DNA from: an uncultured Clostridia bacterium
GTDB lineage: Bacteria; Bacillota; Clostridia; Oscillospirales; CAG-272
Assembly (NCBI GenBank): GCA_945929845.1
Contig: CAMEON010000004.1
Span: 708 to 64,707, forward strand
DNA length: 64,000 nucleotides
Reading direction: 5' to 3'
Position numbers and translations under genes: made by a program. A model generated the notes under the pieces. It had not been told where the DNA came from, made no database searches, and saw only the letters and a program-made list of their open reading frames with translations. Position 1 is the first letter of the stretch, and the number at the start of each line of letters is the position of its first letter. Below are positions 3,585 through 49,027 of the stretch, one piece after another.

Positions 3585-3746
3585 AGGAACCGCTGATTTA
3601 TTCGGCGGCACATCTTCGGCACATCTTTTCCCGCCTGCTTCTTGCCGAAAAACTCGATGTACATCCAGTACATCTTGAGTTTTTCGCAATCGCAGACGAA
3701 AAAATCTGTACCGAATCTGCACCACCTCATTAAATCAGCGTTTCCA
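3585..3746 (-). mobile_element. MITE-like element, family C, copy C1
   Basis: AGGAACCGCTGATTTATTCGG...CATTAAATCAGCGTTTCCA, with TA on both flanks (3583-84 and 3747-48). It is homologous over its full length to the copies at 9021, 29273 and 48866. Confidence 0.85.
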
Positions 3747-3845
3747 TAATGATGCGGAAGTTAGCGGACGCTAACCGGAGGCTGGCCGGTTTGATGCAAG
3801 GTGAATGGTCGGCAAATACTGATTGTCAGTAAGGAGGAAAAGGTC

Positions 3846-4100
3846 ATGGTCAGGATTACGGTGGATGTGGAAGGAATGGCGTGCGGGACGTGTGAAGCAC
3901 ATGTCAACGAGGCAGTCAGGAAGGTCTTCCCGGTGAAGAAGGTCACCTCGTCCCATAGCAAAGGGAGAACGGAGATTATCACAGAGGCACCCCTTGATGA
4001 GAACCAACTGAAGGATGCGATCCAGGCGACCGGGTATCAGGTACTGGGCATCCACACGGAGCCATACCAGAAAAAAGGCTTTTCGCTGTTCAGAAAATAA
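3846..4100 (+). CDS. heavy-metal-associated (HMA) domain protein, CopZ-like
   Basis: Start is residue 16 of ORF 3801..4100, right after AAGGAGG. MVRITVDVEGMACGTCEAHVNEAV carries the GMxCxxC metal-binding motif. Confidence 0.8.
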   Translation: MVRITVDVEGMACGTCEAHVNEAVRKVFPVKKVTSSHSKGRTEIITEAPLDENQLKDAIQATGYQVLGIHTEPYQKKGFSLFRK

Positions 4101-4203
4101 CAGGGGAACATACCCTGAGACATGGATGCCCCGCATATTTCTGTGATGGCCGGTCAGCAAGCTGCTTTCACGACATAGCAGGAAGATTATTTCAATAAAT
4201 CGG

Positions 4204-4232
4204 TTGACAGGAGGGGCAATGAGAGGTATAAT
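4204..4232 (+). promoter_or_regulatory. consensus sigma-A promoter (TTGACA-17 nt-TATAAT)
   Basis: TTGACA at 4204-4209 and TATAAT at 4227-4232. The leader to ATG 4299 is about 60 nt. Confidence 0.7.
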
Positions 4233-4298
4233 AGGCAAGGGCCGGTTGGTGTGGATGTGCCGGACCAGCCTACTTTATACTGTTGATCGGGTGATGAT

Positions 4299-5081
4299 AT
4301 GACAGCATATGCTATGTATGGAATTCTGATTCCTTTCCTGGGGACTGCGTTGGGTGCCGCCTGCGTCCTATTCATGAAAAAGACCATGAGCGACCATTTG
4401 CAAAGGGCTTTGTCCGGTTTTGCGGCCGGGGTCATGGTTTCGGCCTCTGTGGGGAGCCTTCTGATCCATGCTCTGGAGCAGGCGGGAGAGATGGGAGCCT
4501 GGTCCTTCCTGCCGGCGGCGGTGGGGTTCTGGGCCGGTATTCTGTTCCTGCTCCTCATGGACCGTCTGATCCCCCACCTGCACCGGAATGCACAGCAAGC
4601 CGAGGGGCCCAGGAGCCGGTTGCAGAAGACCACCATGCTGGTGCTGGCGGTCACATTGCATAACATTCCCGAGGGGATGGCGGTGGGCGTGGTGTACGCC
4701 GGGTACCTGACAGGGAACGGCAACATTTCCGCCATGGGTGCCCTGGCACTGTCCCTGGGTATCGCCATTCAGAATTTCCCCGAGGGAGCCATCATTTCTA
4801 TGCCGCTGAAGGCGGAGGGAATGAAAAAGTCCAGGGCTTTTTTCAACGGCGTCGCCTCCGGTATCGTGGAACCTGTCGGTGCCCTGATCACCATCGCCGC
4901 CGCCGGTTTCGTGATGCCTGCACTGCCGTACCTGCTCAGCTTTGCGGCGGGTGCCATGCTGTATGTGGTGGTGGAGGATCTGATTCCGGAGATGTCTGCG
5001 GGCAGTCACTCTAATGTGGGCACCATCTTCTTCGCCGTCGGCTTCAGCCTGATGATGATCCTGGATGTGGCTCTCGGATAA
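4299..5081 (+). CDS. ZIP family metal (zinc-type) transporter, copy 1
   Basis: 260 aa and multi-pass. HNIPEGMAVG and QNFPEGAIISMPL are the ZIP/ZupT-GufA-type signatures. Confidence 0.85.
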   Translation: MTAYAMYGILIPFLGTALGAACVLFMKKTMSDHLQRALSGFAAGVMVSASVGSLLIHALEQAGEMGAWSFLPAAVGFWAGILFLLLMDRLIPHLHRNAQQAEGPRSRLQKTTMLVLAVTLHNIPEGMAVGVVYAGYLTGNGNISAMGALALSLGIAIQNFPEGAIISMPLKAEGMKKSRAFFNGVASGIVEPVGALITIAAAGFVMPALPYLLSFAAGAMLYVVVEDLIPEMSAGSHSNVGTIFFAVGFSLMMILDVALG

Positions 5082-5190
5082 CAGGGCGGAGTACCACGGG
5101 TGCGCTTTACCTGAACTGTGACCTTTTGTTTCTCCTCCGAACTTTTCACTTCGCTGGGTTGCAGAAGTGTGTCGATTTTTCTGAAAACTG

Positions 5191-5219
5191 TTGACAGCGC
5201 AAACGAATTGATGTATAAT
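5191..5219 (+). promoter_or_regulatory. consensus sigma-A promoter (TTGACA-17 nt-TATAAT)
   Basis: TTGACA at 5191-5196 and TATAAT at 5214-5219. The leader to ATG 5286 is about 60 nt. Confidence 0.7.
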
Positions 5220-5285
5220 AGTGCGCTGGAACGGGCATTTGCATCGGCATGGTCGGTTCAATTCTTTTGAAACAGGTGTTCTGAT

Positions 5286-6068
5286 ATGGATTTATACTCT
5301 TTTTCGGGAATCATGATCTCTTTCCTTGGTACGGTACTGGGAGCCTCCTGTGTCCTGTTCATGAGAAAGAATCTAAGCGACCGCTTGCAAAGGATCCTTT
5401 CCGGCTTTGCAGCTGGGGTCATGGTGGCGGCCTCCATCTGGAGCCTGCTCATTCCTTCCCTTGAACAGTCTGAGGGGATGGGGAAGTGGGCGTTCGTCCC
5501 TGCGGCAGTCGGTTTCTGGGTCGGGATCCTGTTCCTCTTGCTGATGGATCATGTGATCCCTCACCTGCACAGGAACGCCCTGCAGGCAGAAGGGCCGAAG
5601 AGCCGGCTACAGAGGGACACCATGCTGGTGCTGGCGGTCACACTTCATAATATTCCGGAAGGCATGGCTATTGGCGTGGTGTACAGCGGATATCTTTCCG
5701 GGAATGCCAACATCTCGGCTATGGGTGCGCTGGCTCTGTCCATCGGTATCGCCATTCAGAATTTCCCGGAAGGTGCCATCATATCCATGCCGCTGAAAGC
5801 GGAGGGAATGAAGAAGTCCAAGGCTTTCCTGTACGGCGTGCTGTCCGGTGTGGTGGAACCCATCAGCGCATTGCTGACCATCGCCGCTACGGGCATCGTG
5901 ACACCCATCCTGCCGTACCTGCTCAGCTTTGCCGCAGGTGCTATGCTGTATGTGGTGGTGGAGGAACTGATCCCGGAAATGTCTGCGGGTCAGCATTCCA
6001 ATCTGGGCACCATCTTCTTCGCTGTCGGCTTCAGCGTTATGATGATCCTGGAAGTTCTGTTCGGATGA
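5286..6068 (+). CDS. ZIP family metal transporter, copy 2 (tandem paralog)
   Basis: Same 260-aa length as copy 1 and collinear with it without gaps. Most positions are identical by eye, and the HNIPEGMAIG and QNFPEGAIISMPL motifs are shared. Confidence 0.85.
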   Translation: MDLYSFSGIMISFLGTVLGASCVLFMRKNLSDRLQRILSGFAAGVMVAASIWSLLIPSLEQSEGMGKWAFVPAAVGFWVGILFLLLMDHVIPHLHRNALQAEGPKSRLQRDTMLVLAVTLHNIPEGMAIGVVYSGYLSGNANISAMGALALSIGIAIQNFPEGAIISMPLKAEGMKKSKAFLYGVLSGVVEPISALLTIAATGIVTPILPYLLSFAAGAMLYVVVEELIPEMSAGQHSNLGTIFFAVGFSVMMILEVLFG

Positions 6069-6205
6069 TGTCAGGCGGATAGTAAAGTACATATAGAAGG
6101 ATCTTTGAATAATCCGGGGAAGCTTTCTTTTGAGAGTCTCCCCGGCTCACTTTTTGCCTTCCCGGGCATCACTGAATTTTATGGTGCGATCTTTTTCAAA
6201 AAGTA

Positions 6206-6234
6206 TTGCCAAACGAAAGAATTTATGGTATACT
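6206..6234 (+). promoter_or_regulatory. sigma-A-type promoter (TTGCCA-17 nt-TATACT)
   Basis: TTGCCA at 6206-6211 and TATACT at 6229-6234, preceded by TGG. It lies about 50 nt upstream of ATG 6286. Confidence 0.55.
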
Positions 6235-6285
6235 GTACCCAAATCCGGGCATATGCCCGAACTATTCCGAAAGGATTTGAAAAGT

Positions 6286-8808
6286 ATGAGTAAAGATTAT
6301 ATGACAGACGGCCTGGGCCGTTGGATCACCTTTGCCAATCCAAACGGAGGCGTTGCCTCCGAGACAAAGAACCCCTGGGAGACCCCCATCGGGGCCGCCG
6401 ACCAGTTCGCTCCCATTGTGGATAAGGAGGGCGTAGCCCTCTTTGCCCGGAGCTTTTCCGTGTCCGGCCTGAAGTCGGCCCGCATTGATGCCACCTCCCT
6501 GGGTATTTTTGACCTTTGGGTCAACGGTCGCCGGGTAGGCTCCGGCCGGGAGCGGGCGGACAGCGCACCCTTCGACGAGCTGAAGCCCGGTTGGTCGGAC
6601 TACCGCAAGCGGGTGCTGTACTACTCCTATGACCTGACCGACTACCTCCGGGAGGGGGAGAACACCCTGCTCATCGCCGTGGCACCCGGCTGGTACAATG
6701 GGCGTATTTCCCTGGGCACCTACGGGGACACCCACATCTCCCTCCTGGCCGCCATCCACCTGCTGGACGGGGCAGGGGAGCGGTCCATTTATACCGATAG
6801 CTCCTGGCAGGCCGCCTGGGGCAGTGCCATCCGGGCCGCTGACATCTGGGACGGCGAGATGTACGATGCCAACTACCCCTCCCTGGCGGCTCTGTCTCAG
6901 CCCGGCGCAGATGTGACCTGGAGCACCCCCACCGAGGAGGAGTATGACCTGTTCGTGACCCCCCACATCGGCTCCACCATCACCGTGCGTCCCAACCTGA
7001 CCCGCCGCCCCCAGACCGTGACCATCTACTGCGGCACCGAGGACAACGGCAGTGACTATGGCCGGATCCATGTGGTGGACACCCCCACCGGGGACGGCTT
7101 CACCCTGAAGAAGGGACAGTCCGCCGTGCTGGACTTCGGCCAGAACATGGTAGGCTGGCCCACCTTCACCGTGCAGGGTGCCAAGGGCACTTCCATACAG
7201 GTGCGCTTCGGCGAGATGCTCAACGACAGCGGACTGAAGTCCCGGGGCAACGACAATCCCGAGGGCTCCATCTACTCCATCAACTACCGTTCGGCCAAGG
7301 CCAAGATCTGCTATGTGCTGAGCGGCTCCGGGGAGGAGTCCTACCGCCCCACCTTTACCTTCTTCGGCTTCCGCTACTGCGAGATCCAGGCCACTGAGGA
7401 TGTGACCTTCACCTCCATGCAGGCACAGGTGGTTGGCTCTGCCAATGTGGAGCTGGGTCATATGGAGACTTCCCATAAGGATGTGAACCAGCTGATCTCC
7501 AACATTCTCTGGGGTCAGCGTGGCAACTACCTGTCCGTGCCCACCGACTGCCCTCAGCGGGATGAGCGACTGGGCTGGACCGGCGACACCCAGGCCTTCT
7601 GCGGCACCGCATCCTACAACGCCGATGTGGACGGCTTCTTCCACAAGTGGCTCCAGGATGCCCGGGACTCCCAGGCGGATTCCGGCATGTACCCGGATGT
7701 CATTCCCGCCTCCCGGGTGGTAGGATACGGTGGTGCCGCCTGGAGCGATGCAGGCATCATTGTTCCCTACACCATGTGGAAGATGTACGCCGACACCTCC
7801 ATCATCGAGGAGCATTTCGCCTCCATGGAGCGGTATATGGATTGGCTGGCTACCACCAACATGGCAGGCCCCAACCCCACCTACGGCGACTGGCTGGCCT
7901 ATGAGGGCACGGATAATCGGTACATCTCGGTAGCCTACTATGCACTGGATGCCCGCTACATGGCCGCCATGGCCCGGGCCATCGGCAAGGAGGAGCGAGC
8001 CGCCCACTATGACAAGGTGTATAAGGAGGTCAGCGAGCACTTCCGCACCGTGTACTGCGATGGGGAGGGCAACCTGAATCCGGAGTTCCGCACCCAGACC
8101 GGCTACCTGCTCGCCCTGAAGATAGACCTGCTCCTGCCGGAGAACAGACCTGCCGCCGTGGCGGCTCTGAAGCAGAAGGTGATTGACAACGGCTATAAGC
8201 TGTCCACCGGCTTTGTTGGCTCCTGCATCCTCAATGAGGTGCTGGCGGAGTTCGGCGAGAATAACCTGGCCTACTCCCTCCTGCTACAGACCGAGAACCC
8301 CTCCTGGCTGTACAGCGTACACCAGGGTGCCACCACCATTTGGGAGCGGTGGAACTCCTATACCAAGGCAACCGGATTCGGCGATGTGGGCATGAATTCC
8401 TTCAACCACTACGCCTACGGCGCCGTGCAGGAGTGGATGTACCGCCATGTCGCCGGTATCGAGACCACCGAGGAGGCACCCGGCTTTGCCCATCCTGTCC
8501 TCCAGCCCAAACCGGACACCAGAACGCTGGAGGAGATACCCGCTGGGCAGGAGAAGATCACCTGGGTCAAGGCCTCCTACCAGTCAAGAGCCGGGCTGAT
8601 TCAGTCCAGCTGGGATATGACAAACGGCTTTACCTACGAGTGCCAGGTGCCGGTAGCGGCGACGCTGTACCTGCCGGTGCTGACCGACGGAGACACCTTT
8701 ACTGTCAATGGGGAGACCCATCGCTTCGATGAGTACACCGCCTGCCCCTGCGGCCGCGCGGTGGTCATGGAGCTGAAGCCCGGTACATATACCTTCCGGC
8801 AGAACTGA
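6286..8808 (+). CDS. alpha-L-rhamnosidase (glycoside hydrolase family 78)
   Basis: Start is residue 53 of ORF 6130..8808 (MSKDYMTDG), downstream of the promoter. LSVPTDCPQRDERLGWTGDTQAF and the overall ~840-aa architecture are typical of GH78. Confidence 0.8.
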   Translation: MSKDYMTDGLGRWITFANPNGGVASETKNPWETPIGAADQFAPIVDKEGVALFARSFSVSGLKSARIDATSLGIFDLWVNGRRVGSGRERADSAPFDELKPGWSDYRKRVLYYSYDLTDYLREGENTLLIAVAPGWYNGRISLGTYGDTHISLLAAIHLLDGAGERSIYTDSSWQAAWGSAIRAADIWDGEMYDANYPSLAALSQPGADVTWSTPTEEEYDLFVTPHIGSTITVRPNLTRRPQTVTIYCGTEDNGSDYGRIHVVDTPTGDGFTLKKGQSAVLDFGQNMVGWPTFTVQGAKGTSIQVRFGEMLNDSGLKSRGNDNPEGSIYSINYRSAKAKICYVLSGSGEESYRPTFTFFGFRYCEIQATEDVTFTSMQAQVVGSANVELGHMETSHKDVNQLISNILWGQRGNYLSVPTDCPQRDERLGWTGDTQAFCGTASYNADVDGFFHKWLQDARDSQADSGMYPDVIPASRVVGYGGAAWSDAGIIVPYTMWKMYADTSIIEEHFASMERYMDWLATTNMAGPNPTYGDWLAYEGTDNRYISVAYYALDARYMAAMARAIGKEERAAHYDKVYKEVSEHFRTVYCDGEGNLNPEFRTQTGYLLALKIDLLLPENRPAAVAALKQKVIDNGYKLSTGFVGSCILNEVLAEFGENNLAYSLLLQTENPSWLYSVHQGATTIWERWNSYTKATGFGDVGMNSFNHYAYGAVQEWMYRHVAGIETTEEAPGFAHPVLQPKPDTRTLEEIPAGQEKITWVKASYQSRAGLIQSSWDMTNGFTYECQVPVAATLYLPVLTDGDTFTVNGETHRFDEYTACPCGRAVVMELKPGTYTFRQN

Positions 8809-8844
8809 TGGGTTCCCGCCACCACAAGGGATCATATAACAACA

Positions 8845-8885
8845 CCCCCGCCCGTACCATTCCGGTACCCGGCGGGGGTTTTTCG
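8845..8885 (+). terminator. rho-independent terminator (hairpin copy 1 of 3)
   Basis: CCCCCGCCCGTACCATTCCGGTACCCGGCGGGGG is followed by TTTTT. It lies 37 nt after the rhamnosidase stop. Confidence 0.8.
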
Positions 8886-8965
8886 AAGATGTCTACCGTT
8901 GATATTACCAGCGATTAGTAAATTATGCACAAAAATTAATTCAATAAATTGTAAAAAAAAGAGGA

Positions 8966-8994
8966 TTGCATAAAGTCGGATATTCGTGTATGAT
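8966..8994 (+). promoter_or_regulatory. promoter of cassette 1 (TTGCAT-17 nt-TATGAT)
   Basis: It sits in an AT-rich block that is homologous to 10301-10430. Element C2 lies between it and the RBS. Confidence 0.5.
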
Positions 8995-9020
8995 ATATAC
9001 CGAAGATGTTATTTTGCTTA

Positions 9021-9171
9021 GGGAAACGCTGATTTAATGAGGTGGTACAGATTCGGTACAGATTTTTTTGCCTGCGATTGCGAAAAACTCAAGATGTACT
9101 GGATGTACATCCAGTTTTTCGGAAAGAAGCAGGTGGGAAAAGATGTGCCGCCGAATAAATCAGCGGTTCCT
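9021..9171 (+). mobile_element. MITE-like element, family C, copy C2
   Basis: GGGAAACGCTGATTTAATGAGG...CCGAATAAATCAGCGGTTCCT, flanked by TA at 9019-20 and 9172-73. It lacks the 11-nt GAAGATGTGCC segment seen in C1 and C5. Confidence 0.85.
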
Positions 9172-9207
9172 TAAAAATTCTTGTGACAAGTCAAGGAGGG
9201 TATTCCC

Positions 9208-10257
9208 GTGAAAAAAACACCAAATTTTAGTATTGTCTTTAGTCTTACTGTCCTTCTTTTTACCGTTATGTTCACTTCCTGCGCTTCCCAATCGCCGACC
9301 ACGCCGCCGCAAGGCATAGAAGGAGCCGACGAAACAACGGCGGAAGACGCAATTCCCACTCAGGCGGAGGAGGAGAAAACCGAACCTGCCCATACGGAAG
9401 CGGAGCTGAAGGCTTCGGACGGCTGTTTTGCTACTGAGCAGTATGAGGTCACCATGGTGGATGGGGTACATTACCTGAACTATTTCAATGGAAACGAGGC
9501 CACGGAAGAGCAGAAAATAGCCTGTCAGACAGCCGGAGTCTTCTTCCCCTCCATAACGGATATGTACAATGCCATCAGACAGGGCGGGGAAGCGTTGCAG
9601 GAGGCTTCCGTGAAAGCCACCTTCCTGCATGATGCGAACGGGATCCCAGTCTGCAACCCGGATCAGTTGTACCGCCCGGTCAAGCCGATCGGAATTGGTT
9701 CGGTCAAAGAAATATGCTGGATGGGAACATACTATTCCTTTTCTTATGCAGGTGTTGAGGATCTGTGTGGGAGCGTGGATGTCATCTGTTACGATATGAG
9801 CTACTACCTGGCCACCGGGCTGGAGGGTAGAGATCCCCGAGCCTATTACCGGAATTCTTATGAAAAGATTTTTGAAAGATATCCTGGTGATAATGAGAAT
9901 GGGGCGTACAGCAGTACGGTAGTGTCCCGAGAGACCGGCACCTACGGGGGTCAGCCCTGTGAGTCTGTGACCACTACCTCTTCCCTCACCACCAACCGCT
10001 CCACCCGCCTGACTGTTCAGGACGGAGACAGGAATGTGACCATTATCATGCGGTACCTGATCGCCTGCGACCCCGCATGGCAACAGGAGAATGATCTTGA
10101 GGTATCAGACACCGTTCCCTGGGCTGTATTCATGTACTGGGATAACGGTACGGACAGCTATCAGGTGAATATATATAATATGGTGGAGTCCCCCACGCTG
10201 GAGTGGTTGCTATCCTTTGATGTGGCGGCCTACACACCCGGTGAGGTTGACGCCTAA
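9208..10257 (+). CDS. lipoprotein, function unknown
   Basis: GTG start 7 nt after AAGGAGGG. The signal peptide MKKTPNFSIVFSLTVLLFTVMFTSC ends in a lipobox Cys and is followed by a Pro/Thr/Glu-rich linker. No family recognised. Confidence 0.75.
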   Translation: MKKTPNFSIVFSLTVLLFTVMFTSCASQSPTTPPQGIEGADETTAEDAIPTQAEEEKTEPAHTEAELKASDGCFATEQYEVTMVDGVHYLNYFNGNEATEEQKIACQTAGVFFPSITDMYNAIRQGGEALQEASVKATFLHDANGIPVCNPDQLYRPVKPIGIGSVKEICWMGTYYSFSYAGVEDLCGSVDVICYDMSYYLATGLEGRDPRAYYRNSYEKIFERYPGDNENGAYSSTVVSRETGTYGGQPCESVTTTSSLTTNRSTRLTVQDGDRNVTIIMRYLIACDPAWQQENDLEVSDTVPWAVFMYWDNGTDSYQVNIYNMVESPTLEWLLSFDVAAYTPGEVDA

Positions 10258-10300
10258 AAAACAGATCCCCCGCCCGTACCGTTTCGGTACCCGGCGGGGG
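10183..10300 (+). repeat. direct repeat DR-a (last 24 codons of the lipoprotein gene plus hairpin copy 2)
   Basis: It aligns by hand with 11831-11949 at roughly nine in ten positions. The hairpin CCCCCGCCCGTACCGTTTCGGTACCCGGCGGGGG at 10267-10300 has no T-tract here. Confidence 0.85.
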
Positions 10301-10385
10301 GTTCAACATAGGTGTCTGATGTTATTTGACCCAATCTTGTATATCATGTATAAATTAGGCATGAAGAATTTGTAAAAAGTGCGAA

Positions 10386-10414
10386 TTGCATATAGTTGTA
10401 TATTTGTGTATACT
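10386..10414 (+). promoter_or_regulatory. promoter of cassette 2 (TTGCAT-17 nt-TATACT)
   Basis: Same architecture and flanking sequence as 8966-8994 (AATTGTAAAAA..G.GAATTGCATA.AGT). Confidence 0.5.
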
Positions 10415-10545
10415 ATATGTTGTAATTGTTGGTAGTTCTATGTTGGTAAATATTGACAAAAGGAAGTGATACTAATGGCCTAATGTTTTATGATTTTGAA
10501 GAAAGAATATATCATTTGAACGGTATAAAGAAATTGGAGGTTATT

Positions 10546-11820
10546 ATGAAAAAGGCTTTGACAGTCATTCTATCTATAATGCTACTCATTGAAATGGTAA
10601 ATTCCTTACAGGTCGGAACATCAGCAGAAGAGAATACCAGAACAGATGGTGATGACCTATGCGATGATAATTCTTTTTATTTTGAAACTGTTGATCGCTC
10701 TAAATATCAGTTGTCCCAAGCACAACTTGATGCACCGACAGATGAGTTGATCGATGCTATTATGGATTATCCTTATTTGGTTGATCTCTTCACAAGTAGT
10801 GATTCTTCCGTTTCGGCCTATAACAGTCTTCGTGAATCATTCAATGGCTTAGCGGAATTGGAAGAGCGTGCAGATGCTGCATCTGTTTTGTTGACTAAGT
10901 TTATTGATGCTGAAACAACCACTGTCTATGACAATCTTTTAAACTCCGTATATTTAGAGGCGTTACTGTCTCTTCCTGTTTATTTTGAAAACCTAAGCGC
11001 AATCGAAATAGCCACATATTCTCAGATATCTGAAACCAGTGCGCTCATTCCGAAGGCTGAAGCAACACAGTCTGTTACTGATACACCCAATCTTTCCGGT
11101 ACATATTCAAGTTCATCAGTAGCATTTACCGTGAATGGGTTTTCGTATACTCGTTCCAACACCAATGGATCCACCACATGTGGTAATATTGTACCATTAT
11201 ATACAGCTTTGAGCGATTATAGTAGTACGGAGAAAAAATCTATAGCTGAGGGCACTGCTTCAAAGTATGGCATTGAACTCCTAGGTTATGCTACTTCTAT
11301 GTACAACTGCCACAGTTATGCTTGGTACTACTCATCAACCTCGAATTTATCATGGGTTAGTGATATATCTCCCTATACAAGTGACAGCCATTGTACAGTT
11401 TTAAGTGCGCCAAGTGTTGGCTCGATTGCTGTGTATCTAAACAGTAGCAACCAATGTGTACATTCTGCAATTGTCACGAGTGTCGATGGCAACAATGTCA
11501 TGTGCAAGTCTAAATGGGGTTCAAATGGTCTTTTTGAACATCATATTTCGAATGTTCCTTCCGGTTATCAGTACAGTAGCACTTATGTAAAATGTGTATT
11601 TTTCAGCTATTCAAGATATCACACCTGTTCTGTTACCATTGATAATTTATCAACTCATACACGAGTGTGTAGTGTTTGTGGATGGACTTCTACTGAAGCT
11701 CATGTTGAGAATGTTAGGACAGGAAAATGCATGACTTGTGGTTTAGCTGGCCCGTTTACTGCTTGCCTTGAATCCACCCCCCAATTGCCGGAGGACGAAT
11801 GCTCACAGATTAACGAATAA
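10546..11820 (+). CDS. AT-rich secreted protein with a putative papain-like Cys/His core and a C-terminal CxxC-rich module; likely horizontally acquired
   Basis: Start is residue 32 of ORF 10453..11820, after GGAGG. The signal peptide is MKKALTVILSIMLLIEMVNSLQVGTSA. Candidate catalytic motifs are YNCHSYAWYY, then GSIAVYLNSSNQCVHSAIV, then KSKWGSNGLFEHH. The tail has CSVCG...CMTCG. No family recognised with certainty. Confidence 0.7.
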   Translation: MKKALTVILSIMLLIEMVNSLQVGTSAEENTRTDGDDLCDDNSFYFETVDRSKYQLSQAQLDAPTDELIDAIMDYPYLVDLFTSSDSSVSAYNSLRESFNGLAELEERADAASVLLTKFIDAETTTVYDNLLNSVYLEALLSLPVYFENLSAIEIATYSQISETSALIPKAEATQSVTDTPNLSGTYSSSSVAFTVNGFSYTRSNTNGSTTCGNIVPLYTALSDYSSTEKKSIAEGTASKYGIELLGYATSMYNCHSYAWYYSSTSNLSWVSDISPYTSDSHCTVLSAPSVGSIAVYLNSSNQCVHSAIVTSVDGNNVMCKSKWGSNGLFEHHISNVPSGYQYSSTYVKCVFFSYSRYHTCSVTIDNLSTHTRVCSVCGWTSTEAHVENVRTGKCMTCGLAGPFTACLESTPQLPEDECSQINE

Positions 11821-11830
11821 GTATGATTTA

Positions 11831-11949
11831 GTGGAGTACCCCACGCTGGAGTGGTTGCTGTCCTTTGATGTGGCGGCCTATACACCCGGTGAGGTTTCCG
11901 CTTAAAGAATCAAGTCCCCCGCCCGTACCATTCCGGTACCCGGCGGGGG
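11831..11949 (+). repeat. direct repeat DR-b: promoterless 24-codon remnant of a lipoprotein paralog plus hairpin copy 3
   Basis: It translates VEYPTLEWLLSFDVAAYTPGEVSA*, against VESPTLEWLLSFDVAAYTPGEVDA* at the end of 9208..10257. It has no start codon and begins 11 nt after the AT-rich gene's stop. Confidence 0.85.
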
Positions 11950-11966
11950 TGTTTTTATTTCTTTTT
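11916..11966 (+). terminator. rho-independent terminator between convergent genes (hairpin copy 3)
   Basis: CCCCCGCCCGTACCATTCCGGTACCCGGCGGGGG is followed by TGTTTTTATTTCTTTTT. The T-tract overlaps the last plsY codons on the other strand. Confidence 0.7.
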
Positions 11967-23686: not shown

Positions 23687-23926
23687 GGGCGGATATGGAA
23701 TCTGCTCAAACTGTGTTCGTCTCCGTATACGGATGTCGCCCCTACTACACTGTAACGATTAAAACTTAACATTTATATTTGAGGTTGTTCCAAGCATCCT
23801 TGTAGGGCGGGGGCTTGCTCCCGCCGGAGAAGACCCCGATAAAACCTCCCTTGTGTAAAGAGCGTTACATCAGCGAAGCATGACGGAGTATCGGGAAATA
23901 AAGTTTCATTGGTTGCACCGTACTAC
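23687..23926 (+). repeat. REP/BIME-like mosaic repeat cluster, locus E2 (truncated)
   Basis: It has GGGCGGATATGGAAT..., CCGTATACGGATGTCGCCCCTAC (23723-23745), and a single GTAGGGCGGGGGCTTGCTCCCGCC at 23802-23825. The second inverted arm and about 70 nt are missing relative to E1, E3 and E4. Confidence 0.8.
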
Positions 23927-25152: not shown

Positions 25153-25518
25153 ATGGAGTGGCTGAAATATGTGTGGTCCTTTTTGGTGGGCGGGGCACTA
25201 TGCGTCGTTGCCCAAATCCTGATAGACAAAACCAAGCTGACCCCCGCCCGGATCCTGGTCGGGTATGTGACGGCGGGGGTGATCCTGGGGGCCATCGGCG
25301 TGTACCAGCCCCTGGTGGACTTCGCCGGGGCAGGGGCGGCCACGCCGCTGACCGGATTCGGCAACCTGATCGCCAAGGGCATCCGGAAGGCGGTGGATGA
25401 GCGGGGTCTGCTGGGTGTCCTGACCGGCGGCCTGACAGCGGCGGCAGGCGGGACAGCGGCGGCGCTGGTCTTCGGCTACCTGGCGGCACTGATCTGGCGG
25501 GGGAAGCCCAAGGGGTAA
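25153..25518 (+). CDS. spoVAE: stage V sporulation protein AE (SpoVAEB-type)
   Basis: 121 aa. MEWLKYVWSFLVGGALCVVAQILIDKTKLTPARILV...PLTGFGNLIAKG matches SpoVAE. Confidence 0.85.
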   Translation: MEWLKYVWSFLVGGALCVVAQILIDKTKLTPARILVGYVTAGVILGAIGVYQPLVDFAGAGAATPLTGFGNLIAKGIRKAVDERGLLGVLTGGLTAAAGGTAAALVFGYLAALIWRGKPKG

Positions 25519-25658
25519 GGGAACCACTGATTGATTCGGCGGCGCATCTTCGGCACATCTTTTCCCGTCTGCTTCTTGCCGAAAAAAGCGTTTTTCGCAA
25601 TCGCAGACTAAAAAAATCTGTACAGAATCTGCACCACCTCATTCAATCAGTGTTTCCC
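25519..25658 (-). mobile_element. MITE-like element, family C, copy C3 (internally deleted)
   Basis: GGGAACCACTGATTGATTCGG...CATTCAATCAGTGTTTCCC, flanked by TAA on both sides. About 28 nt of the central palindrome region is missing. Confidence 0.8.
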
Positions 25659-25662
25659 TAAG

Positions 25663-26388
25663 CTATGAGTACCTTCTGGGGGAGGATACCTTGATGCCAA
25701 AGCCCTCCCGGAGCTTGTCGATGGCGGCCTTCTCAATGCGGCTGACATAGGAGCGGGAGATGCCAAGCAGGGCGGCGATCTCCCGCTGTGTCATGGCGGG
25801 GGTGTCGCCAAGGCCAAAGCGCAGGAGAATGACCTGCTGTTCCCGGGGATCCAGACGGCTGTGGATCATGTGCATAGCCCGCTCCGCCTCCACCTTGCGG
25901 AAAATCTCCTCGGTGATGCACTCCTCCGAGCTGATGACATCCATGTATGTCAGGGGGTTGCCGTCCCTGTCCACATCTATCGTGTCGTTCAGGGACACCT
26001 CGCCGCAGGTCTTTTTCTGTGCCCGGAAGTACATAAGGATCTCGTTCTGAATACATTTGGCCCCGTAGGTGGCAAAACGGGTGCCAGCCTCCGGCTTGAA
26101 GGTGTCCACCGCCTTGCACAGACCGATGGTGCCGATGGATACCAGATCCTCCTGATTCCGGCTGGAGGCATAGTATTTGCGGACGATATGGGACACAAGC
26201 CGCAGGTTGTGGAGGATGAGCTTCTGCCGGGCCTCCTCGCGGACGGCGGGATCCGGGTGGTTCCGGGACAGGCGGAAGGCCTGCTCTTCCTCCGCACTGT
26301 CCAGGGGCGGGGGAAAATTCTGAGCCGTACCTACGCCCAGGATCAGGTGAAACAGACGGGTGATAGGGGAAAGAAGCAATCCGAACAT
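25663..26388 (-). CDS. sigK: sporulation sigma factor, pro-sigma-K type
   Basis: A short hydrophobic pro-sequence is followed by NFPPPLDSAEEE. GTRFATYGAKCIQNEILMYFR and TQREIAALLGISRSYVSRIEK resemble SigK more than SigE (ISQSYISRLEK) as I recall them. The gene is not interrupted. Confidence 0.7.
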   Translation of the reverse strand: MFGLLLSPITRLFHLILGVGTAQNFPPPLDSAEEEQAFRLSRNHPDPAVREEARQKLILHNLRLVSHIVRKYYASSRNQEDLVSIGTIGLCKAVDTFKPEAGTRFATYGAKCIQNEILMYFRAQKKTCGEVSLNDTIDVDRDGNPLTYMDVISSEECITEEIFRKVEAERAMHMIHSRLDPREQQVILLRFGLGDTPAMTQREIAALLGISRSYVSRIEKAAIDKLREGFGIKVSSPRRYS

Positions 26389-29174: not shown

Positions 29175-29656
29175 GTAGGGGCGACCGCCGTATACGGATG
29201 TGGTCGCTTTGTTCAATGCGGGCGAACACAGTTCGCCCCTACTACACTGTAACGATTAAAATTTTACATTTAAGAAAACGCTGATTGAATGAGGTGGTAC
29301 AGATTCGGTGCGGATTTTTTCGTCTGCGATTGCGAAAAACTCAAGATGTACTGGATGTACATCGAATTTTTCGGCAAGAAGCAGGCGGGAAAAGATGTGC
29401 CGAAGATGGCCACCGAATAAATCAGCGGTTCCTTAAATTTGAGGTTGATCCAAGCATCCTTGTAGGGCGGGGGCTTGCTCCCGCCGGAGAAGACCCCGAT
29501 AAAAACCTCCCTTGTGTAAAGGGCGTTACATCAGCGAAGCGTGACGGAGGGATTGTTCTTTCGGCGGGAGCAAGCCCCCGCCCTACGACAGATCATTTTG
29601 CCTTATCCTGATATCGGCTATCAGGAAATAAAGTTTAACTTGTTACGCCGTACTAC
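29175..29656 (+). repeat. REP/BIME-like mosaic repeat cluster, locus E3 (carries the nested element C4)
   Basis: Units are GTAGGGGCGACCGCCGTATACGGATGTGGTCGC at 29175 and GCGGGCGAACACAGTTCGCCCCTAC at 29218-29242. The 24-nt inverted arms lie at 29462-29485 and 29563-29586. The terminal ...CGCCGTACTAC ends at 29656. Confidence 0.85.
29273..29433 (+). mobile_element. MITE-like element, family C, copy C4, inserted inside E3
   Basis: AGAAAACGCTGATTGAATGAGG...CCGAATAAATCAGCGGTTCCT, with TA at 29271-72 and 29434-35. Confidence 0.85.
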
Positions 29657-40703: not shown

Positions 40704-40803
40704 CTCAATGACTCCGTTCTTTTTTTCATGCGGTATCATTCCGTATTTTGTACAGAACTTCATGGGGATATACACCGCAAATGTTCCCGGCAAATTTTGT
40801 GGG

Positions 40804-40841
40804 CGCAAAAAACCGGAGAAGAAACGGGTTCTTCTCCGGTT
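40804..40841 (-). terminator. rho-independent terminator between the CHAP gene and the PTS gene
   Basis: A 13-bp stem, AACCGGAGAAGAA/TTCTTCTCCGGTT, with a 5-nt loop is followed by TTTTTT on the reverse strand. Confidence 0.7.
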
Positions 40842-40923
40842 ACTATTTCGGTCTGAATATGCTGTTGTGTTTCACACTCGAAAAATATGTTGTTATCAAG
40901 GGACGGTTACATACCCGCAAACC

Positions 40924-42447
40924 TCACTCATCCCGCCGCCTCTTCCGCAACAGGGCCAGGGCAGGGAGCAGGAGCAGAGCCGGGGATCCCAGCCCCAGAG
41001 CGGTGGTACAGCCGCCGCTGGAGGATGACTTTTCCGTTGCGCTCTCCCCGGAATCCGTATCTTTGGCGGTGGGGGCGGTCGTCTCCGGTTGCGTTTCAGG
41101 CTGGGTCTCCGGCGGTATCTCGGTGTAGACGGCGTTGACCACCACATCCCCGGTGGTCAGAGTGAACGGCTCCCATGCGCCGGTGTAGCCCTCCTTTTCG
41201 GGAACGGCCGGCGGGGTCACAGTGGGGGCATCCGTGGTGTAGGTGCGGGTGTCTACGGTGATGCCGTCCGCCTGGAAGGTCACGGTGTAGGACAGGGCCG
41301 TGTAGACAGCCTTGACGGTGATGTCACCGGTGGCCGTCCCCAGGGTAAAGTTCTCCCACGCACCGATGTAGCCTTCTTTCTCGGGTACTGCCGGGACAGT
41401 GCTGGGGTTCTCATCCCCCGCAGTAAACAGTACCTCCTCAACAAGCTGTCCGTCCGCTACAAAGGACAGGGTGTACATGGGGGTCAGCAGGCAGAGGTAC
41501 TGGGGCTCCATGTACCCGACGGTCTCCACGCCGTCCACAGAGACCAGCACCTTGGCACGGGTGCCCTTCTTCTCGGTCTCCACAAGATCAAGGAGCTTCA
41601 CCGTGCCGCCCAGGACGGTGTTGGTCAGCCGGGTGTTGTTTTCTGCTTCCGTGGTGATACGAACCATGGCGGAGGTGATGACATAGGTTCCCCGGGGCAT
41701 TCCTTCGGTGTAGGCGTAGTCCAGGGTAGCCTCGGAGCCTTCCTCGTAGGGCGGGGTACCATAACCGATGATGCAGGGGTCATTCAGCGCATAGCAACGG
41801 ATGCCCACTTCGTTGTTGCTGTTGCCCTCGATGGTGTAGATCTTGTCTTCGGTTGTATACAGCACATAGCCGATATGGCCGGAGGTGGTGTTGTTGGCAT
41901 CCCAGTTGAAGAAGATCATGTCGGCAGGCTGGGGGTCGTAGGAGCCCTTGTAGGCGGCGGAGTCCTCAAACATACCGTTGGCCTTGAGCCACTCCACCCA
42001 CTTCCAACAGCCGATCTCCCCATAGCAGTAGTCAATGTGGGCCTGATTCAGTACCCAGTTGACAAAACAGGCGCACCATTCATAGCTGTTGTTGTTGTAA
42101 TTGGGGACAATGAGCCGGGCATACTCTATGTAGTTCCCGCTGCCGCTCCGGTTGGTACCGCTGAATTCCTCCGGGGAATTTCCCTCATGGTAGCCCAGCT
42201 GGGATACGGCGATCCGCAGGACATTGTTCCGTTGATTCTCCGTCAGGGACAGGGAGTGGAAATTCTGGTACCACACCGATGTCATATACGCATCGGAGAA
42301 GGTGTAATCCGGGTCGTTGGTGACCCAGTTCCGTATCTTCACACCGTTGCCGGAGGGCTCCAGTGCCTGAATGGACACCGTGGCCGGCACAGCCAGCATA
42401 AGGACGGACAGGAGGACTGCGATCAGCTTCTGCATAGTGGAGCGCAT
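40924..42447 (-). CDS. secreted CHAP-domain cell-surface protein with two Listeria-Bacteroides-type repeats and a Cys-containing C-terminal anchor signal
   Basis: Start is residue 15 of ORF 40924..42489, after AAGAGG. The signal peptide is ...LLSVLMLAVPATVSIQA. The CHAP motifs are EWCACFVNWV, SGHIGYVLY and TIEGNSNN. The repeat PAVPEKEGY(I/T)GAWE.FTL occurs twice. The tail is SSSSGGCTTALGLGSPALLLLPALALLRKRRRDE, with no LPXTG. Confidence 0.8.
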   Translation of the reverse strand: MRSTMQKLIAVLLSVLMLAVPATVSIQALEPSGNGVKIRNWVTNDPDYTFSDAYMTSVWYQNFHSLSLTENQRNNVLRIAVSQLGYHEGNSPEEFSGTNRSGSGNYIEYARLIVPNYNNNSYEWCACFVNWVLNQAHIDYCYGEIGCWKWVEWLKANGMFEDSAAYKGSYDPQPADMIFFNWDANNTTSGHIGYVLYTTEDKIYTIEGNSNNEVGIRCYALNDPCIIGYGTPPYEEGSEATLDYAYTEGMPRGTYVITSAMVRITTEAENNTRLTNTVLGGTVKLLDLVETEKKGTRAKVLVSVDGVETVGYMEPQYLCLLTPMYTLSFVADGQLVEEVLFTAGDENPSTVPAVPEKEGYIGAWENFTLGTATGDITVKAVYTALSYTVTFQADGITVDTRTYTTDAPTVTPPAVPEKEGYTGAWEPFTLTTGDVVVNAVYTEIPPETQPETQPETTAPTAKDTDSGESATEKSSSSGGCTTALGLGSPALLLLPALALLRKRRRDE

Positions 42448-42639
42448 GACGAAACCTCTTTCAGTTGTGTATTTCCCGGACTCTCGCACCTTCGAGCGAA
42501 ACGACGGGCCCCTTGGGGGTACCCTATTATAACATGAAAGGTTGAATTTGTAAAGACTGTTTTTTGCTTTTCTGGCAGATTTATCACTGGAAAATCAGGA
42601 AAATAGTTACAGACTGCCGCCTCTCCATATCCCGGTTTC

Positions 42640-43152
42640 TCAAAGCTGGCGCTCCCCCCACATATGCTCATGGAGCTGTCCCTCGGTTTGCAGGCCGTCG
42701 AAGTCGTACTGCCGCAGGACCTCATACACGGCGACAGCCACGGAGTTGGACAGGTTGAGGGAGCGCAGATGATCCCGCATGGGGATGCGCAGGCAGGTGT
42801 CCGGGTGGGCAAGGAGCAATTCCTCCGGCAGTCCCCGGGTCTCCTTACCGAACATCAGGTATACTTCCTCCGGGTAATCCACATCCGTGTGACGACGGCG
42901 ACCCTTGGTGGTGAAGAAGTAGACGGCGGCTCCGGGGTGTCTGGCGAAGAAGTCCTCCAGACCATCATAGTAGGAGACATTGAGCTTGTCCCAGTAATCC
43001 AGCCCGGCCCGCTTCATCTTCCGGTCATCAATGGGGAAGCCCAGGGGGCGGATCAGGTGGAGGGAGGCACCGGTGGCGGCGCAGGTGCGGGCGATGTTCC
43101 CGGTGTTCTGGGGAATCTCCGGCTCATGGAGAACGATATGGATATGCGGCAT
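42640..43152 (-). CDS. trmL: tRNA (cytidine/uridine-2'-O)-methyltransferase TrmL (SpoU family)
   Basis: Start is residue 25 of ORF 42640..43224. The product begins MPHIHIVLHEPEIPQNTGNIARTCAATGASLHLIRPLGF. Confidence 0.85.
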   Translation of the reverse strand: MPHIHIVLHEPEIPQNTGNIARTCAATGASLHLIRPLGFPIDDRKMKRAGLDYWDKLNVSYYDGLEDFFARHPGAAVYFFTTKGRRRHTDVDYPEEVYLMFGKETRGLPEELLLAHPDTCLRIPMRDHLRSLNLSNSVAVAVYEVLRQYDFDGLQTEGQLHEHMWGERQL

Positions 43153-43359
43153 GGTGTATCCTTTCCCGGATGCGACGGGCATCCTGATGGCTTCCATTAT
43201 AGTACAAAAGGGAACAAATTGCAAGTATTATCTGAAAATTTACAATTAGGTGCCGGTTCCGTATAAAATTTGTAGTATAATAGAATAGATAGCCGGATGA
43301 GACCGGCCAATGACCCATATCCGTCCCGCCCGGGACGGTCCAAGAAAGGAATCCTGTGC

Positions 43360-46125
<2,766 letters not shown>

Positions 46126-46135
46126 GAAGCGGCAG

Positions 46136-46165
46136 GTCTGAAATAAACTTTTGCTTATTTCAGAC
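46136..46165 (+). terminator. hairpin after secA (weak terminator candidate)
   Basis: GTCTGAAATAA-acttttgc-TTATTTCAGAC forms an 11-bp stem. There is no U-tract. Confidence 0.35.
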
Positions 46166-46193
46166 AGATATTCAGAAAGGACTGGTCACACAT

Positions 46194-46922
46194 ATGGGCT
46201 TCGGACTCATGCTCTGCGGATACTTCATACTCACCTTCATGTCCTTTGGCATGGGGGAGTATGGCTTCGCCGCCTACATCATCGGCGGGGCGGTCAGCAT
46301 GATGGCGGCCGGTAAGCTGTACGAGTATAAGCACCGCTTCGCCCTGTGCGTCGGTACCTCCATAGCCTACATGGTGCTGGGGGTGTATGATGCCGTTGGC
46401 TGTCTGGACACCCTGTTGCTGTGGGAATTGCCCCTGTTCGGCAAGGCGGTCTCCGGGGTGATGGACATCCTGCGCTTTGCCCTGGAGCTGGGTCATACCC
46501 TGTGCCTTCTGTGGGCGGTCATGGAGCTTTCCACCGCCGCAGGGGTGGAGAAAATCCGTGGGGGGGCTATGCGCAATGCCATTCTGACCGGCGTCTGGGC
46601 AGTGGGACAGGTGGTGCTGGTGCTGTTTCCGGCGGTGGCCGCATTTGAAGACCAGACCATAACCAAAATTTTCGTGCTGTTCCAACTCATCTTATACCTG
46701 CTCAATACCTGGCTGCTGTTCCGTGCCTACCAGCTGATCTGCCCGGAGGGGGAGGAGACCGGCAGGGACAGGAAGCCGTCCCGCTTCGGCTTTGTCAATG
46801 CCATCCGGAATAAGCTGGATGAGAAGGCGGAGCGGGCCATGACGGAGACCATGGAGTATCAGGCACAGAAGGCTGCCCAAAAGGACAGGAAGAATCAGAA
46901 GAAAAAGCAGAACCGCCGTTGA
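46194..46922 (+). CDS. multi-pass membrane protein with a basic C-terminal tail, unknown function
   Basis: 242 aa and about 6 hydrophobic segments. It starts MGFGLMLCGYFIL and ends in a K/Q-rich tail. No family recognised. Confidence 0.6.
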   Translation: MGFGLMLCGYFILTFMSFGMGEYGFAAYIIGGAVSMMAAGKLYEYKHRFALCVGTSIAYMVLGVYDAVGCLDTLLLWELPLFGKAVSGVMDILRFALELGHTLCLLWAVMELSTAAGVEKIRGGAMRNAILTGVWAVGQVVLVLFPAVAAFEDQTITKIFVLFQLILYLLNTWLLFRAYQLICPEGEETGRDRKPSRFGFVNAIRNKLDEKAERAMTETMEYQAQKAAQKDRKNQKKKQNRR

Positions 46923-46948
46923 AAAAGCCGGAGAAAGGGGACGGAGTC

Positions 46949-48448
46949 ATGACATGGGCGAATGGTGAAGGGAGAAGACAGGAAACGGGAGCGTATGCCC
47001 TGACTGAAGACGCACAGCCGGGGATGACAGGCGTGAAGGGGAAGAAAAGGCACTGTATGGGTCTGGGCTTTTTGGTGGCCGGTGCGTTCTTCCTGATGGA
47101 TCCCTTTGTCAGCGTCTTTGATTTCCTGCCGGATGTCATCGGCTACCTGCTGATCATACACGGCCTTACCCGGCTGGCGGATCTGGACAGCCGGATGGAG
47201 GAGGCCCGGGGACAGTTCCGGAAGCTGGCCTTGCTGGCAGGCGTGCGGCTCCTGACGATCCCCTTCATTTTCGGATTGTCCTCTCCCTCGGAACAGGGGG
47301 TGGAGCTTCTCCTGTTCTCCTTCGGCCTGGCGGTGCTGGACAGCATCGTGCTGGTTTCCGCCTGGCGTACCCTTGCGGCCGGGTTCCACTCCCTGGCGTA
47401 CCGGTATGACGGTACAGTGCCCCTTACATCTGCGCCCCGGGGCACAAAGAGCATCACGGAGCGGTTGCTGACCCGGACACTGCTGTTCATGCTTGTAAAG
47501 GAAGTGCTTGCCGTACTTCCCGAGCTGACCGTGCTGACCAATCAGGCAGGCGGTGCCGAGGCTGGTCAGAAGTGGAGCCACCTGTACGATTACATCACGC
47601 TGATGCGGGAGGTCTCTGCCGCCATCGTGCTGATCCTGGGGATCCTATGGCTGGTGTCCGTATGCCTGTATGCCCGCCGTCTGTGTGCCGATACAGTGCT
47701 CTTTGACCACCTTGCGGTGGCGTATCAGGAGACGGTGCGCACCAAGCCGGGGCTGTTTACCCAGCGCGGGATCTCCCGGGCTATGATCGTCATGGGGGTC
47801 GGCCTTGCCCTGACCGTGGATTTCTACGCCGACGGTATCAACTGCCTGCCGGATGCCCTGGCCGGGGTGTGTCTGATCTTATCTCTGCTCATGCTCCGAC
47901 GCTATGTCTCGTCCGCAGGCCCCTGCCTTGTGGGGCTTACCCTGTTCATTCCGGTCAGCCTGGCCGCCGGAGCCTGGCAGTCTTACTGCCTCAATGACCT
48001 GGCGGTCAGCGGTGGCGAGGAGTACACCCTGCTTGAGAATGCGGCCCGCCTGCCCCGGGATCCGGAGGCCTTCCGCTCCTTCTGCCTGATGTGCGTGGCT
48101 CTGCTTCTGTCTCAACTGATCCTCTCCGGGGTGCTGTACGGGCTGTACCGTGCCCTGTGCCGGGTGGTGGACAGGTACACCGGTCTGTATGTGTCTACTT
48201 CCTCTGAGGCGGAGGTGGAGGCTCTGCATACCTCCATGAAAAAGCGGCTCCTTGGATTGACGGTGTACGGCGTGGTCTGTTCCCTTTTCTCGGTGGTGTA
48301 CATGGCCACCCTGCCGATGGCCGGGGGTACGCCGATGGAGGCCTTCGGGGTGCTGGATATTGGCCTGCATATCCTCTTTGCCGTGCTGTTCTTCCGAGAG
48401 GTGGGGCGGATACGGGAGCAGATGGAGTACCGCTTCCTTTTGTCATGA
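46949..48448 (+). CDS. multi-pass membrane protein, unknown function
   Basis: The ORF-track start at 46919 is a TTG overlapping the upstream stop. I prefer ATG 46949, after AAGGGGA. The first hydrophobic block, MGLGFLVAGAFFLMD, resembles the start of the preceding gene. No family recognised. Confidence 0.6.
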   Translation: MTWANGEGRRQETGAYALTEDAQPGMTGVKGKKRHCMGLGFLVAGAFFLMDPFVSVFDFLPDVIGYLLIIHGLTRLADLDSRMEEARGQFRKLALLAGVRLLTIPFIFGLSSPSEQGVELLLFSFGLAVLDSIVLVSAWRTLAAGFHSLAYRYDGTVPLTSAPRGTKSITERLLTRTLLFMLVKEVLAVLPELTVLTNQAGGAEAGQKWSHLYDYITLMREVSAAIVLILGILWLVSVCLYARRLCADTVLFDHLAVAYQETVRTKPGLFTQRGISRAMIVMGVGLALTVDFYADGINCLPDALAGVCLILSLLMLRRYVSSAGPCLVGLTLFIPVSLAAGAWQSYCLNDLAVSGGEEYTLLENAARLPRDPEAFRSFCLMCVALLLSQLILSGVLYGLYRALCRVVDRYTGLYVSTSSEAEVEALHTSMKKRLLGLTVYGVVCSLFSVVYMATLPMAGGTPMEAFGVLDIGLHILFAVLFFREVGRIREQMEYRFLLS

Positions 48449-48537
48449 GGGAAATTTCCGCATTTTGCATAGAGTGACCTCATCCGGGTGATACTGTTTG
48501 TGGGCAGGGCTGTGGCCCTGCCGCTTACCGCATACTT

Positions 48538-48726
48538 GTGAATGTAAAGAAAAGGATGGTCACTGAAATGCAGAACCAGCAGAATCAGAACAGAAACAAC
48601 CAGAATCAGAACCAGCAGAAGCAGAATCAGAATCAGCAGAACCAGAATCAGCAGGATCAACAGAACCAGAACAGAAACAACCAGAACCAGAGCAGACAGC
48701 AGCAGAGACAGTCCGAGGAGGACTGA
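48538..48726 (+). CDS. possible Gln/Asn-repeat microprotein (start uncertain)
   Basis: 62-aa ORF with the sequence ...MQNQQNQNRNNQNQNQQKQNQNQQNQNQQDQQNQNRNNQNQSRQQQRQSEED, built from CAGAAY units. Candidate ATGs are at 48556 and 48568. The RBS is weak. Coding status is uncertain. Confidence 0.35.
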   Translation: MNVKKRMVTEMQNQQNQNRNNQNQNQQKQNQNQQNQNQQDQQNQNRNNQNQSRQQQRQSEED

Positions 48727-48865
48727 CCCCGCCGTATAGCCGGGTTGCCGTGTGACCGAATCCTCCGGCACGGCTTGCCGTAGGGAAAGCGGTCACGGGT
48801 AAAAAGGGCTGGTGCACTCCGGTGCGCCAGCCTCTGCCTCTGACAGAGGGAAAGATCACATTTTA

Positions 48866-49027
48866 GGGAAACACTGACTTAATGAGGTGGTACAGATTCG
48901 GTACAGATTTTTTCGTCTGCGATTGCGAAAAACTCAAGATGTACTGGATGTACATCGAGTTTTTCGGCAAGAAGCAGGCGGGAAAAGATGTGCCGAAGAT
49001 GTGCCGCCGAATAAATCAGCGGTTCCC
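48866..49027 (+). mobile_element. MITE-like element, family C, copy C5
   Basis: GGGAAACACTGACTTAATGAGG...CCGAATAAATCAGCGGTTCCC, with TA at 48864-65 and 49028-29. It ends 34-46 nt upstream of the pcrA start. Confidence 0.85.

Follow-up and report, generated by a model that had tools for sequence, protein, structure and literature searches.

The 64,000-nucleotide window analysed here, the whole stretch of DNA under study, comes from an uncultured Clostridia bacterium and corresponds to positions 708-64707 of contig C4 in its own genome assembly (G000; 2,362,626 bp in 104 contigs, 58% G+C, 93% complete). It carries five copies of a short repeat, family C, four of which lie beside genes for an HMA (CopZ-like) protein, a lipoprotein, SpoVAE with a convergent sigma factor, and a PcrA-like protein, and one of which lies within another repeat family. 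Copies are named C1-C5, which are distinct from the contig names C1, C2 and so on; contigs are always called contigs below. A first, sequence-only reading described these copies as miniature elements bounded by terminal inverted repeats (TIRs) and flanked by TA, with no transposase in sight, and assigned them to the IS630/Tc1-mariner group. The copy number, target duplications, empty sites and presence or absence between strains described below support a non-autonomous, TIR-bounded mobile element. Its assignment changes. Family C is very probably a 160-bp miniature transposable element with inverted repeats (MITE), the non-autonomous derivative of an insertion sequence (IS) of the IS5 group, IS5 family.

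Copies across G000 were located with an nhmmer profile built from the five window copies, whose mean column identity is 88% with flanks included. The search returned 153 non-overlapping loci in the 2.36-Mb assembly (85 full copies, 48 pieces at contig ends and 20 internal partial copies), which bears out the very high genome-wide load predicted from the window. About a quarter of the contig ends (48/208) stop inside a copy, so the true copy number is probably 110-130. The element body begins with GGAAAC, ends with GGTTCC and measures 160 bp in 65/84 copies. The TIRs first claimed for the window copies are real (GGAAMCGCTGATT), and two subfamilies are distinguished by positions 14 and 147, which stand opposite one another in the TIR and are either G/C or T/A.

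For the analysis of flanking sequences, copies were anchored at their conserved ends (n = 84) and compared with 20,000 shuffles. The 4-mers on the two sides are identical in 53/84 copies, whereas the shuffles average 12.8 and never exceed 25 (p < 5e-5). The outer positions of the 4-mers agree between left and right in 65/84 and 69/84 copies where ~43 are expected (p < 5e-5), and the non-palindromic 4-mers are repeated directly in 32 cases and inverted in 1. Perfect duplications that fit YTAR number 34 (TTAA 21, TTAG 7, CTAA 6), and a further 16 have no central TA (CAAG and TTTA four times each, CTTA three times, and others). The flanks of family C are thus a 4-bp direct duplication with the consensus YTAR, not a 2-bp TA. 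A 4-bp target duplication with a YTAR motif is known from IS5 (PMC5009759). The TA seen outside both ends holds for the window copies as the middle of this duplication; genome-wide, only 49/84 copies have a central TA on both sides.

A MITE of the IS630/Tc1-mariner type that duplicates TA, with the adjacent R...Y bases belonging to the element, would account for the central TA in all five window copies and in those 49 genome copies, and a DDE_3 (PF13358) fragment does occur in G000 at contig C24:1617-1730. The co-variation of the outer positions argues against this origin, and the CAAG/CAAG, TTTA/TTTA and CTTA/CTTA copies contradict a TA duplication. The DDE_3 match, the only one in the assembly, is a 38-residue piece with a score of 24.9 bits, below the cut-off, in a mosaic junk open reading frame (ORF) with no matching ends. 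Moreover, every full-length element found with family C ends encodes an IS5-family enzyme. Given the 4-bp YTAR duplication and these enzymes, the IS630/Tc1-mariner assignment is scarcely credible. The junk ORF (contig C24:1462-1764, minus strand, outside the window) encodes 100 residues, of which the N-terminal part is IS256-like and the part fused to it IS630-like (DDE_3); this mosaic of decayed transposases has no relation to family C.

Empty sites, proposed at the outset as a check on the duplication, were found both as paralogues holding one copy of the 4-mer and as an orthologue. The paralogous sites exist because many family C copies nest in other repeat families. The filled site of copy C4 reads ACAT-TTAA-element-TTAA-ATTTGAGG, and its empty counterparts on contig C2 (84300-84428) and contig C34 (25-165) read ACATTTAAATTTGAAG with a single TTAA (...TTTTACATTTAAATTTGA...). 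Likewise, contig C22:21191 is filled and contig C4:30246 is empty with a single TTAA, contig C15:392 is filled and contig C11:15775 is empty with a single CTAA, and contig C20:6926 and contig C56:5148 show the same filled/empty pattern. The orthologous site was located through a neighbouring gene that encodes an identical 338-residue protein. G000 (contig C22:23062-23229) and L200 and L201 (L-numbers denote contigs outside G000) have CTAA, 160 bp and CTAA at this site, and L202 (ERZ28573666) and L203 (SRR11185226) have the four bases TTGA, a difference of 164 bp. For one site taken alone, the predicted empty sequence is the same whether 4 bp are duplicated or 2 bp with variable element tips, so that one empty site cannot separate the two; the flank statistics and the duplications without TA do. 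The sites of copies C1 and C3 are occupied in all other assemblies recovered for the species, three for copy C1 and GCA_019972995.1 for copy C3. A search for orthologous empty sites in 28 other species of the genus (~70% DNA identity) found none, as only the copy C3 site aligned and its spacer was too diverged for the target to be read.

The repeat family that hosts copy C4 (...CACTGTAACGATTAAAATTTTACATTTAAATTTGAAGTTGATCCAAGCATCCTTGTAGGGCGGGGGCTTGCTCCCGCC...) occurs on many contigs at 92-99% identity. In the window it lies at 29175-29656, 1574-1820, 23736-23875 and 54733-54947, the last three being contig C4:2281-2527, 24443-24582 and 55440-55654. Family C sits inside it at no fewer than three different TTAA sites (at least contig C4:29981, contig C87:50 and contig C22:21191).

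Full-length elements with the same TIRs and a DDE transposase, which the sequence-only reading had proposed to look for, exist at 1.2-1.28 kb and belong to the IS5 family rather than IS630. Contig L055, from another genus of the same family, carries at 361-1557 a 1197-bp element with an intact 326-residue ORF, perfect 18-nt TIRs (GGAAACGCTGATTAAATC, with GGAAACGCTGATT identical at both ends) and the flanks CCGA/CCGA. The ORF contains the Pfam domains DUF772 (PF05598) and DDE_Tnp_1 (PF01609) and scores 267 bits with the NCBIfam model NF033581, 'IS5 family transposase' (cut-off 140 bits). Comparison of the partner transposase with annotated IS5-family transposases by tblastn resulted in ~47% identity over 97% of the length. 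A congener (G024) has IS copies of 914/918 and 577/581 bp, which are deletion forms of a ~1.27-kb full-length form, and another genus of the family (G254) has a frameshifted full-length copy of 1270 bp. The elements of both genomes terminate in GGAAACACTGATTAATG.../...ATTCAGCGGTTCC and are flanked by 4-mers such as TTAG/TTAG and TTAA/TTAA. A metagenome scan yielded 37 TIR-bounded elements of the partner clade, most of them 1.2-1.28 kb long with ORFs of ~330-340 residues; a small number are truncated, and YTAR flanks are present in nearly all. The flanks of the IS copies themselves are TTAA, TTAG, CTAA, CTAG or CCGA.

The MITE TIRs, 13-17 nt in length (GGAAACGCTGATT(T/G)AAT... / ...AATCAGCGGTTCC), together with ~40 nt at the right end of the MITE, match the ends of this 1.2-1.28-kb clade. 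The left end is identical to that of many metagenomic IS over 17/17 nt, and the right end aligns with the L046/L099-type right end at about 29/40 nt by eye. Contig L099 (2287-3567) contains an intact element of 1281 bp with a 341-residue ORF at 2374-3399 and the flanks TTAA/TTAA, and its transposase scores 309.9 bits over 284/285 positions of NF033581. The sequences around this IS are 98-99% identical to G000 contig C40:78-614, where an uninterrupted, empty TTAA site (GGAATTTAA followed directly by CTTTTCACTTCGCT) takes the place of the element. The species thus possesses the autonomous element, which this strain or bin lacks. Two short transposase contigs from another MITE-bearing metagenome-assembled genome (MAG), L025 and L026, were rejected as partners; the TIRs are absent in both, and L025 is of the IS5 type and cut before its ends.

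Each arm of the MITE contains two 11-nt units in tandem, namely GGTACAGATTC/GGTACAGATTT in the left arm (element positions 20-45, window 48886-48911) and GATGTGCCGAA/GATGTGCCGCC on the right (positions 116-143, window 48982-49009). The partner IS is built in the same way at its right end (ATGTTCGGGAG/ATTTGGAGGCG). The units may be subterminal transposase-binding sites. Relative to contig C40 of G000, L099 carries a further 532-bp insertion (1435-1965), and from 3586 onwards, 18 nt after the IS site, it reads as a different sequence containing GTTACAGTTCA, the end of another G000 MITE family. Several mobile elements thus share this spacer as a hotspot.

Several observations weigh against an IS5-group MITE mobilised by the conspecific IS. 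The absence of a transposase first noted in the window extends to the entire G000 assembly, 93% complete and in 104 contigs, where PF01609 and PF05598 have no match and neither an IS5-type transposase nor the interior of the L099 IS is present. The flanking 4-mers are not identical in 31/84 copies. At TIR position 7 the L099 IS has A where most MITE copies have G, a 1-nt indel at position 14 also sets it apart from them, and left-end identity between the two is absent beyond ~20 nt; because of these differences, another member of the clade could be the true mobiliser. Family C would then be an IS5-type MITE that is a fossil here, spread by a different, now lost clade member, and the conspecific IS would be unrelated to its amplification. 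Such a history is consistent with the many metagenomic IS whose left ends match the MITE better than that of the conspecific IS does, with the occupied sites of copies C1 and C3, with the missing transposase, and with the divergence of the 160-bp copies in G000, a median of 3 of 160 positions from the majority consensus, which indicates that there was no very recent burst. Nonetheless, strains that encode the identical 338-residue neighbouring protein differ in the occupancy of at least one site, the conspecific IS has the same 11 nt at its right end as the MITE, and its left-end variant GGAAACACTGATT occurs in 10/76 MITE copies. A fossil family is unlikely on this evidence, though it retains some weight, and an IS5-group MITE with a living partner in the species is preferred.

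Outside G000, the MITE is present in 4/24 congeneric species searched, at 71-98% identity, and in a single MAG from a different genus of the family; a collection of plasmids gave no DNA match to it. Deletion derivatives of 149, 138, 105, 60 and 27 bp occur in G000. The 105-bp forms lie at contig C67:5856-5960 and 7512-7616 and the 60-bp forms at contig C98:59-118 and 1014-1073. The 27-bp forms (GGAACCGCTGATTGATTCGGCGGTTCC; contig C3:68128-68154, contig C22:7547-7573, contig C41:6654-6680 and contig C1:25836-25862) retain little beyond the two ends, although YTAR-like 4-mers still flank them; they may represent extreme products of deletion or footprints of excision.

All five window copies are present where they were first placed (Table 1). 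Their bodies lie one base further inside at each end, because the earlier limits include one base of the duplication per end.

Table 1 Family C copies in the window, with flanking 4-mers.
Copy	Body	Strand	Length (bp)	Flanking 4-mers	Positions of 4-mers
C1	3586-3745	-	160	TTAT/TTAT, duplication (element orientation)	3746-3749 and 3582-3585
C2	9022-9170	+	149	TTAG, TTAA	9018-9021 and 9171-9174
C3	25520-25657	-	138	TTAG and CTTA, non-identical	
C4	29274-29432	+	159	TTAA/TTAA, duplication	29270-29273 and 29433-29436
C5	48867-49026	+	160	TTAG, CTAG	48863-48866 and 49027-49030

Copy C1 is located 100 nt upstream of the HMA (CopZ-like) gene, which starts at 3846. The right arm of copy C2 is without one 11-nt unit, and this loss is the 11-nt indel that had been noted among the copies. 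The copy ends 37 nt upstream of the GTG start codon of the lipoprotein gene at 9208. Its earlier placement ahead of this gene is correct. No sigma-70 promoter upstream of the copy passed a consensus scan, and a strain-level look-up of the neighbouring protein gave no record. The internal deletion reported among the copies is found in copy C3, where the central 21-23 nt, rather than ~28 nt, are missing. Copy C3 sits on the TAA stop codon of spoVAE (25153-25518), between this gene and the convergent sigma-factor gene. This segment (25153-26388) comprises spoVAE (121 residues) and the gene for a 241-residue sporulation-type sigma factor with only copy C3 between them; the two genes neighbour each other in 11 congeners, with a spacing of 0-40 bp. 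Copy C4 is the nested copy described above. Copy C5 precedes the pcrA-like gene, with about 35 nt between it and the first ATG, in agreement with its earlier placement.

Across the genome, seven copies are 0-1 bp from a called stop codon, and several sit on stop codons because YTAR contains TAA or TAG. Thirty copies precede a start codon by no more than 120 bp, and half of these by no more than 43 bp; the distances of copies C2 and C5 are typical. A preference for the AT-rich, stop-containing YTAR would explain why the element lands in spacers, on stop codons or in the gap between promoter and ribosome-binding site, and leaves genes unbroken. Full copies contain a 48-codon ATG frame (MRWCRFGTDFFVCDCEKLKMYWMYIEFFGKKQAGKDVPKMCRRINQRF; element positions 16-160, + strand), which runs from the right end into the flank, for example at window 3730-3586 on the minus strand. 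The frame has no good ribosome-binding site and is lost in diverged variants.

From end to end the element forms an imperfect palindrome whose arms are identical at 60/75 positions, and the interior palindrome noted earlier (GATGTAC...GTACATC) is the tip of this hairpin. RNA of the + strand is predicted to form a 64-pair hairpin of -95.9 kcal/mol (z = -16.9), compared with -66.1 kcal/mol for the opposite strand. Where the arms differ by a transition, a G.U pair results in 6/6 cases on the + strand and in 0 on the other, an asymmetry that recurs in the diverged variants of two other species, G026 and G021 (e.g. 13 to 0 and 8 to 3). In diverged variants the central stem shows a compensatory change from GATGTAC/GTACATC to GCTGTAC/GTACAGC. 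The orientation of copies between same-direction genes was counted with elements masked, so that ORFs could not run through them, and with crude gene calls; in G000, 34 are antisense and 14 sense (p = 0.0055). A replication-strand cause was rejected, as the split by GC skew is 38 to 28 (p = 0.27) and the bias tracks gene direction instead. The bias was not reproduced among 45 copies in five other genomes (12 sense and 7 antisense downstream, 12 and 12 upstream) and is an unreplicated hint. The strand-asymmetric hairpin is the sole unusual trait of family C.

These features could be read as those of a structured RNA or DNA hairpin, REP/ERIC-like or a small-RNA gene, that is kept for a host function and for which mobility is secondary. 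The stronger fold of the + strand, the one-strand G.U compatibility that persists in two other species, the compensatory arm changes and the orientation counts in G000 are in its favour. However, a search of Rfam, prompted by the possibility of a known structured RNA, found no family at gathering thresholds for any of the five copies and nothing overlapping the element at E <= 1 around copy C5. The orientation bias is absent in relatives, the favoured orientation places the weaker-folding strand in the mRNA, and homogenisation of the arms by template switching can mimic compensatory change. Moreover, the spread of the family is fully explained by the TIRs, duplications, empty sites and IS partner, and a hairpin retained primarily for the host is very improbable. 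The related proposal that the hairpin is shaped for a single-strand function, and is not a mere by-product of transposon ends, fits the one-strand G.U compatibility and the 34-to-14 orientation in G000; it is improbable as well. Were it true, family C would be a domesticated or selected module acting at the level of RNA or single-stranded DNA, with an orientation-dependent effect on transcript stability or termination.

For family C as an IS5-group MITE, a transposase supplied in trans would bind the MITE ends and excise the element. Insertion at YTAR tetranucleotides, mostly TTAA, TTAG and CTAA, would proceed via a staggered 4-bp cut, the repair of which would produce the 4-bp direct duplication. 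The element would have risen to >100 copies in the species and then decayed by internal deletion to the 149-, 138-, 105-, 60- and 27-bp forms. Since the assembly is without the partner transposase, the family in G000 is probably immobile unless the IS is reacquired. Where transcribed, the element would form a hairpin of about 64 base pairs.

Family C has in common with IS5 of Escherichia coli and the IS5 group the 4-bp YTAR duplication (PMC5009759) and ends that start with GGAA, and the partner elements share with the group a length of 1.2-1.28 kb, a single ORF of 326-341 residues with DUF772 and DDE_Tnp_1, and NF033581 scores above the cut-off. Unlike IS5, family C is 160 bp long, is without a transposase gene, has a different TIR sequence and is an imperfect palindrome over its entire length. 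BrickBuilt, MITE293 and MITE700 of Porphyromonas gingivalis and the ATR of Neisseria with ISNme1 are MITEs derived from the IS5 family (PMC4596501). Family C resembles them in being short, non-coding, multi-copy and intergenic, with TIRs that match IS5-family elements, which in those MITEs are resident ones (PMC4596501). The host phylum, the sequence and the IS subgroup differ. In BrickBuilt the duplications are variable and a minisatellite lies inside the element, whereas the duplication of family C is a uniform 4-bp YTAR, and family C has >100 copies against 10-20 in those MITEs. IS5-derived MITEs are thus an already known kind, and family C with its IS5 partner is an ordinary pair in uncultured gut Clostridia.

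Family C can also be likened to the Correia elements (CREE/NEMIS) of Neisseria and to the ERIC sequences of enterobacteria, which are MITE-like repeats of ~100-160 bp that occur between genes in high copy number; upon co-transcription they fold into long hairpins, and they can be located in 5' untranslated regions (UTRs). Correia elements duplicate TA and have 26-bp TIRs, whereas family C duplicates 4 bp and has an IS5-type partner. No partner transposase is known for the Correia elements, and neither repeat is known to be similar in sequence to family C.

Family C makes up roughly 1% of G000 and breaks the assembly at the 48 contig ends that fall within copies. Its copies on stop codons and in putative 5' UTRs are relevant to annotation, and its 48-codon frame gives rise to spurious ORFs and to false N-terminal extensions of downstream genes. 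The true boundaries, 160 bp plus the 4-bp YTAR, and the IS5-type partner allow annotators to mask it, and the presence or absence of individual copies is usable as a strain marker in population studies.

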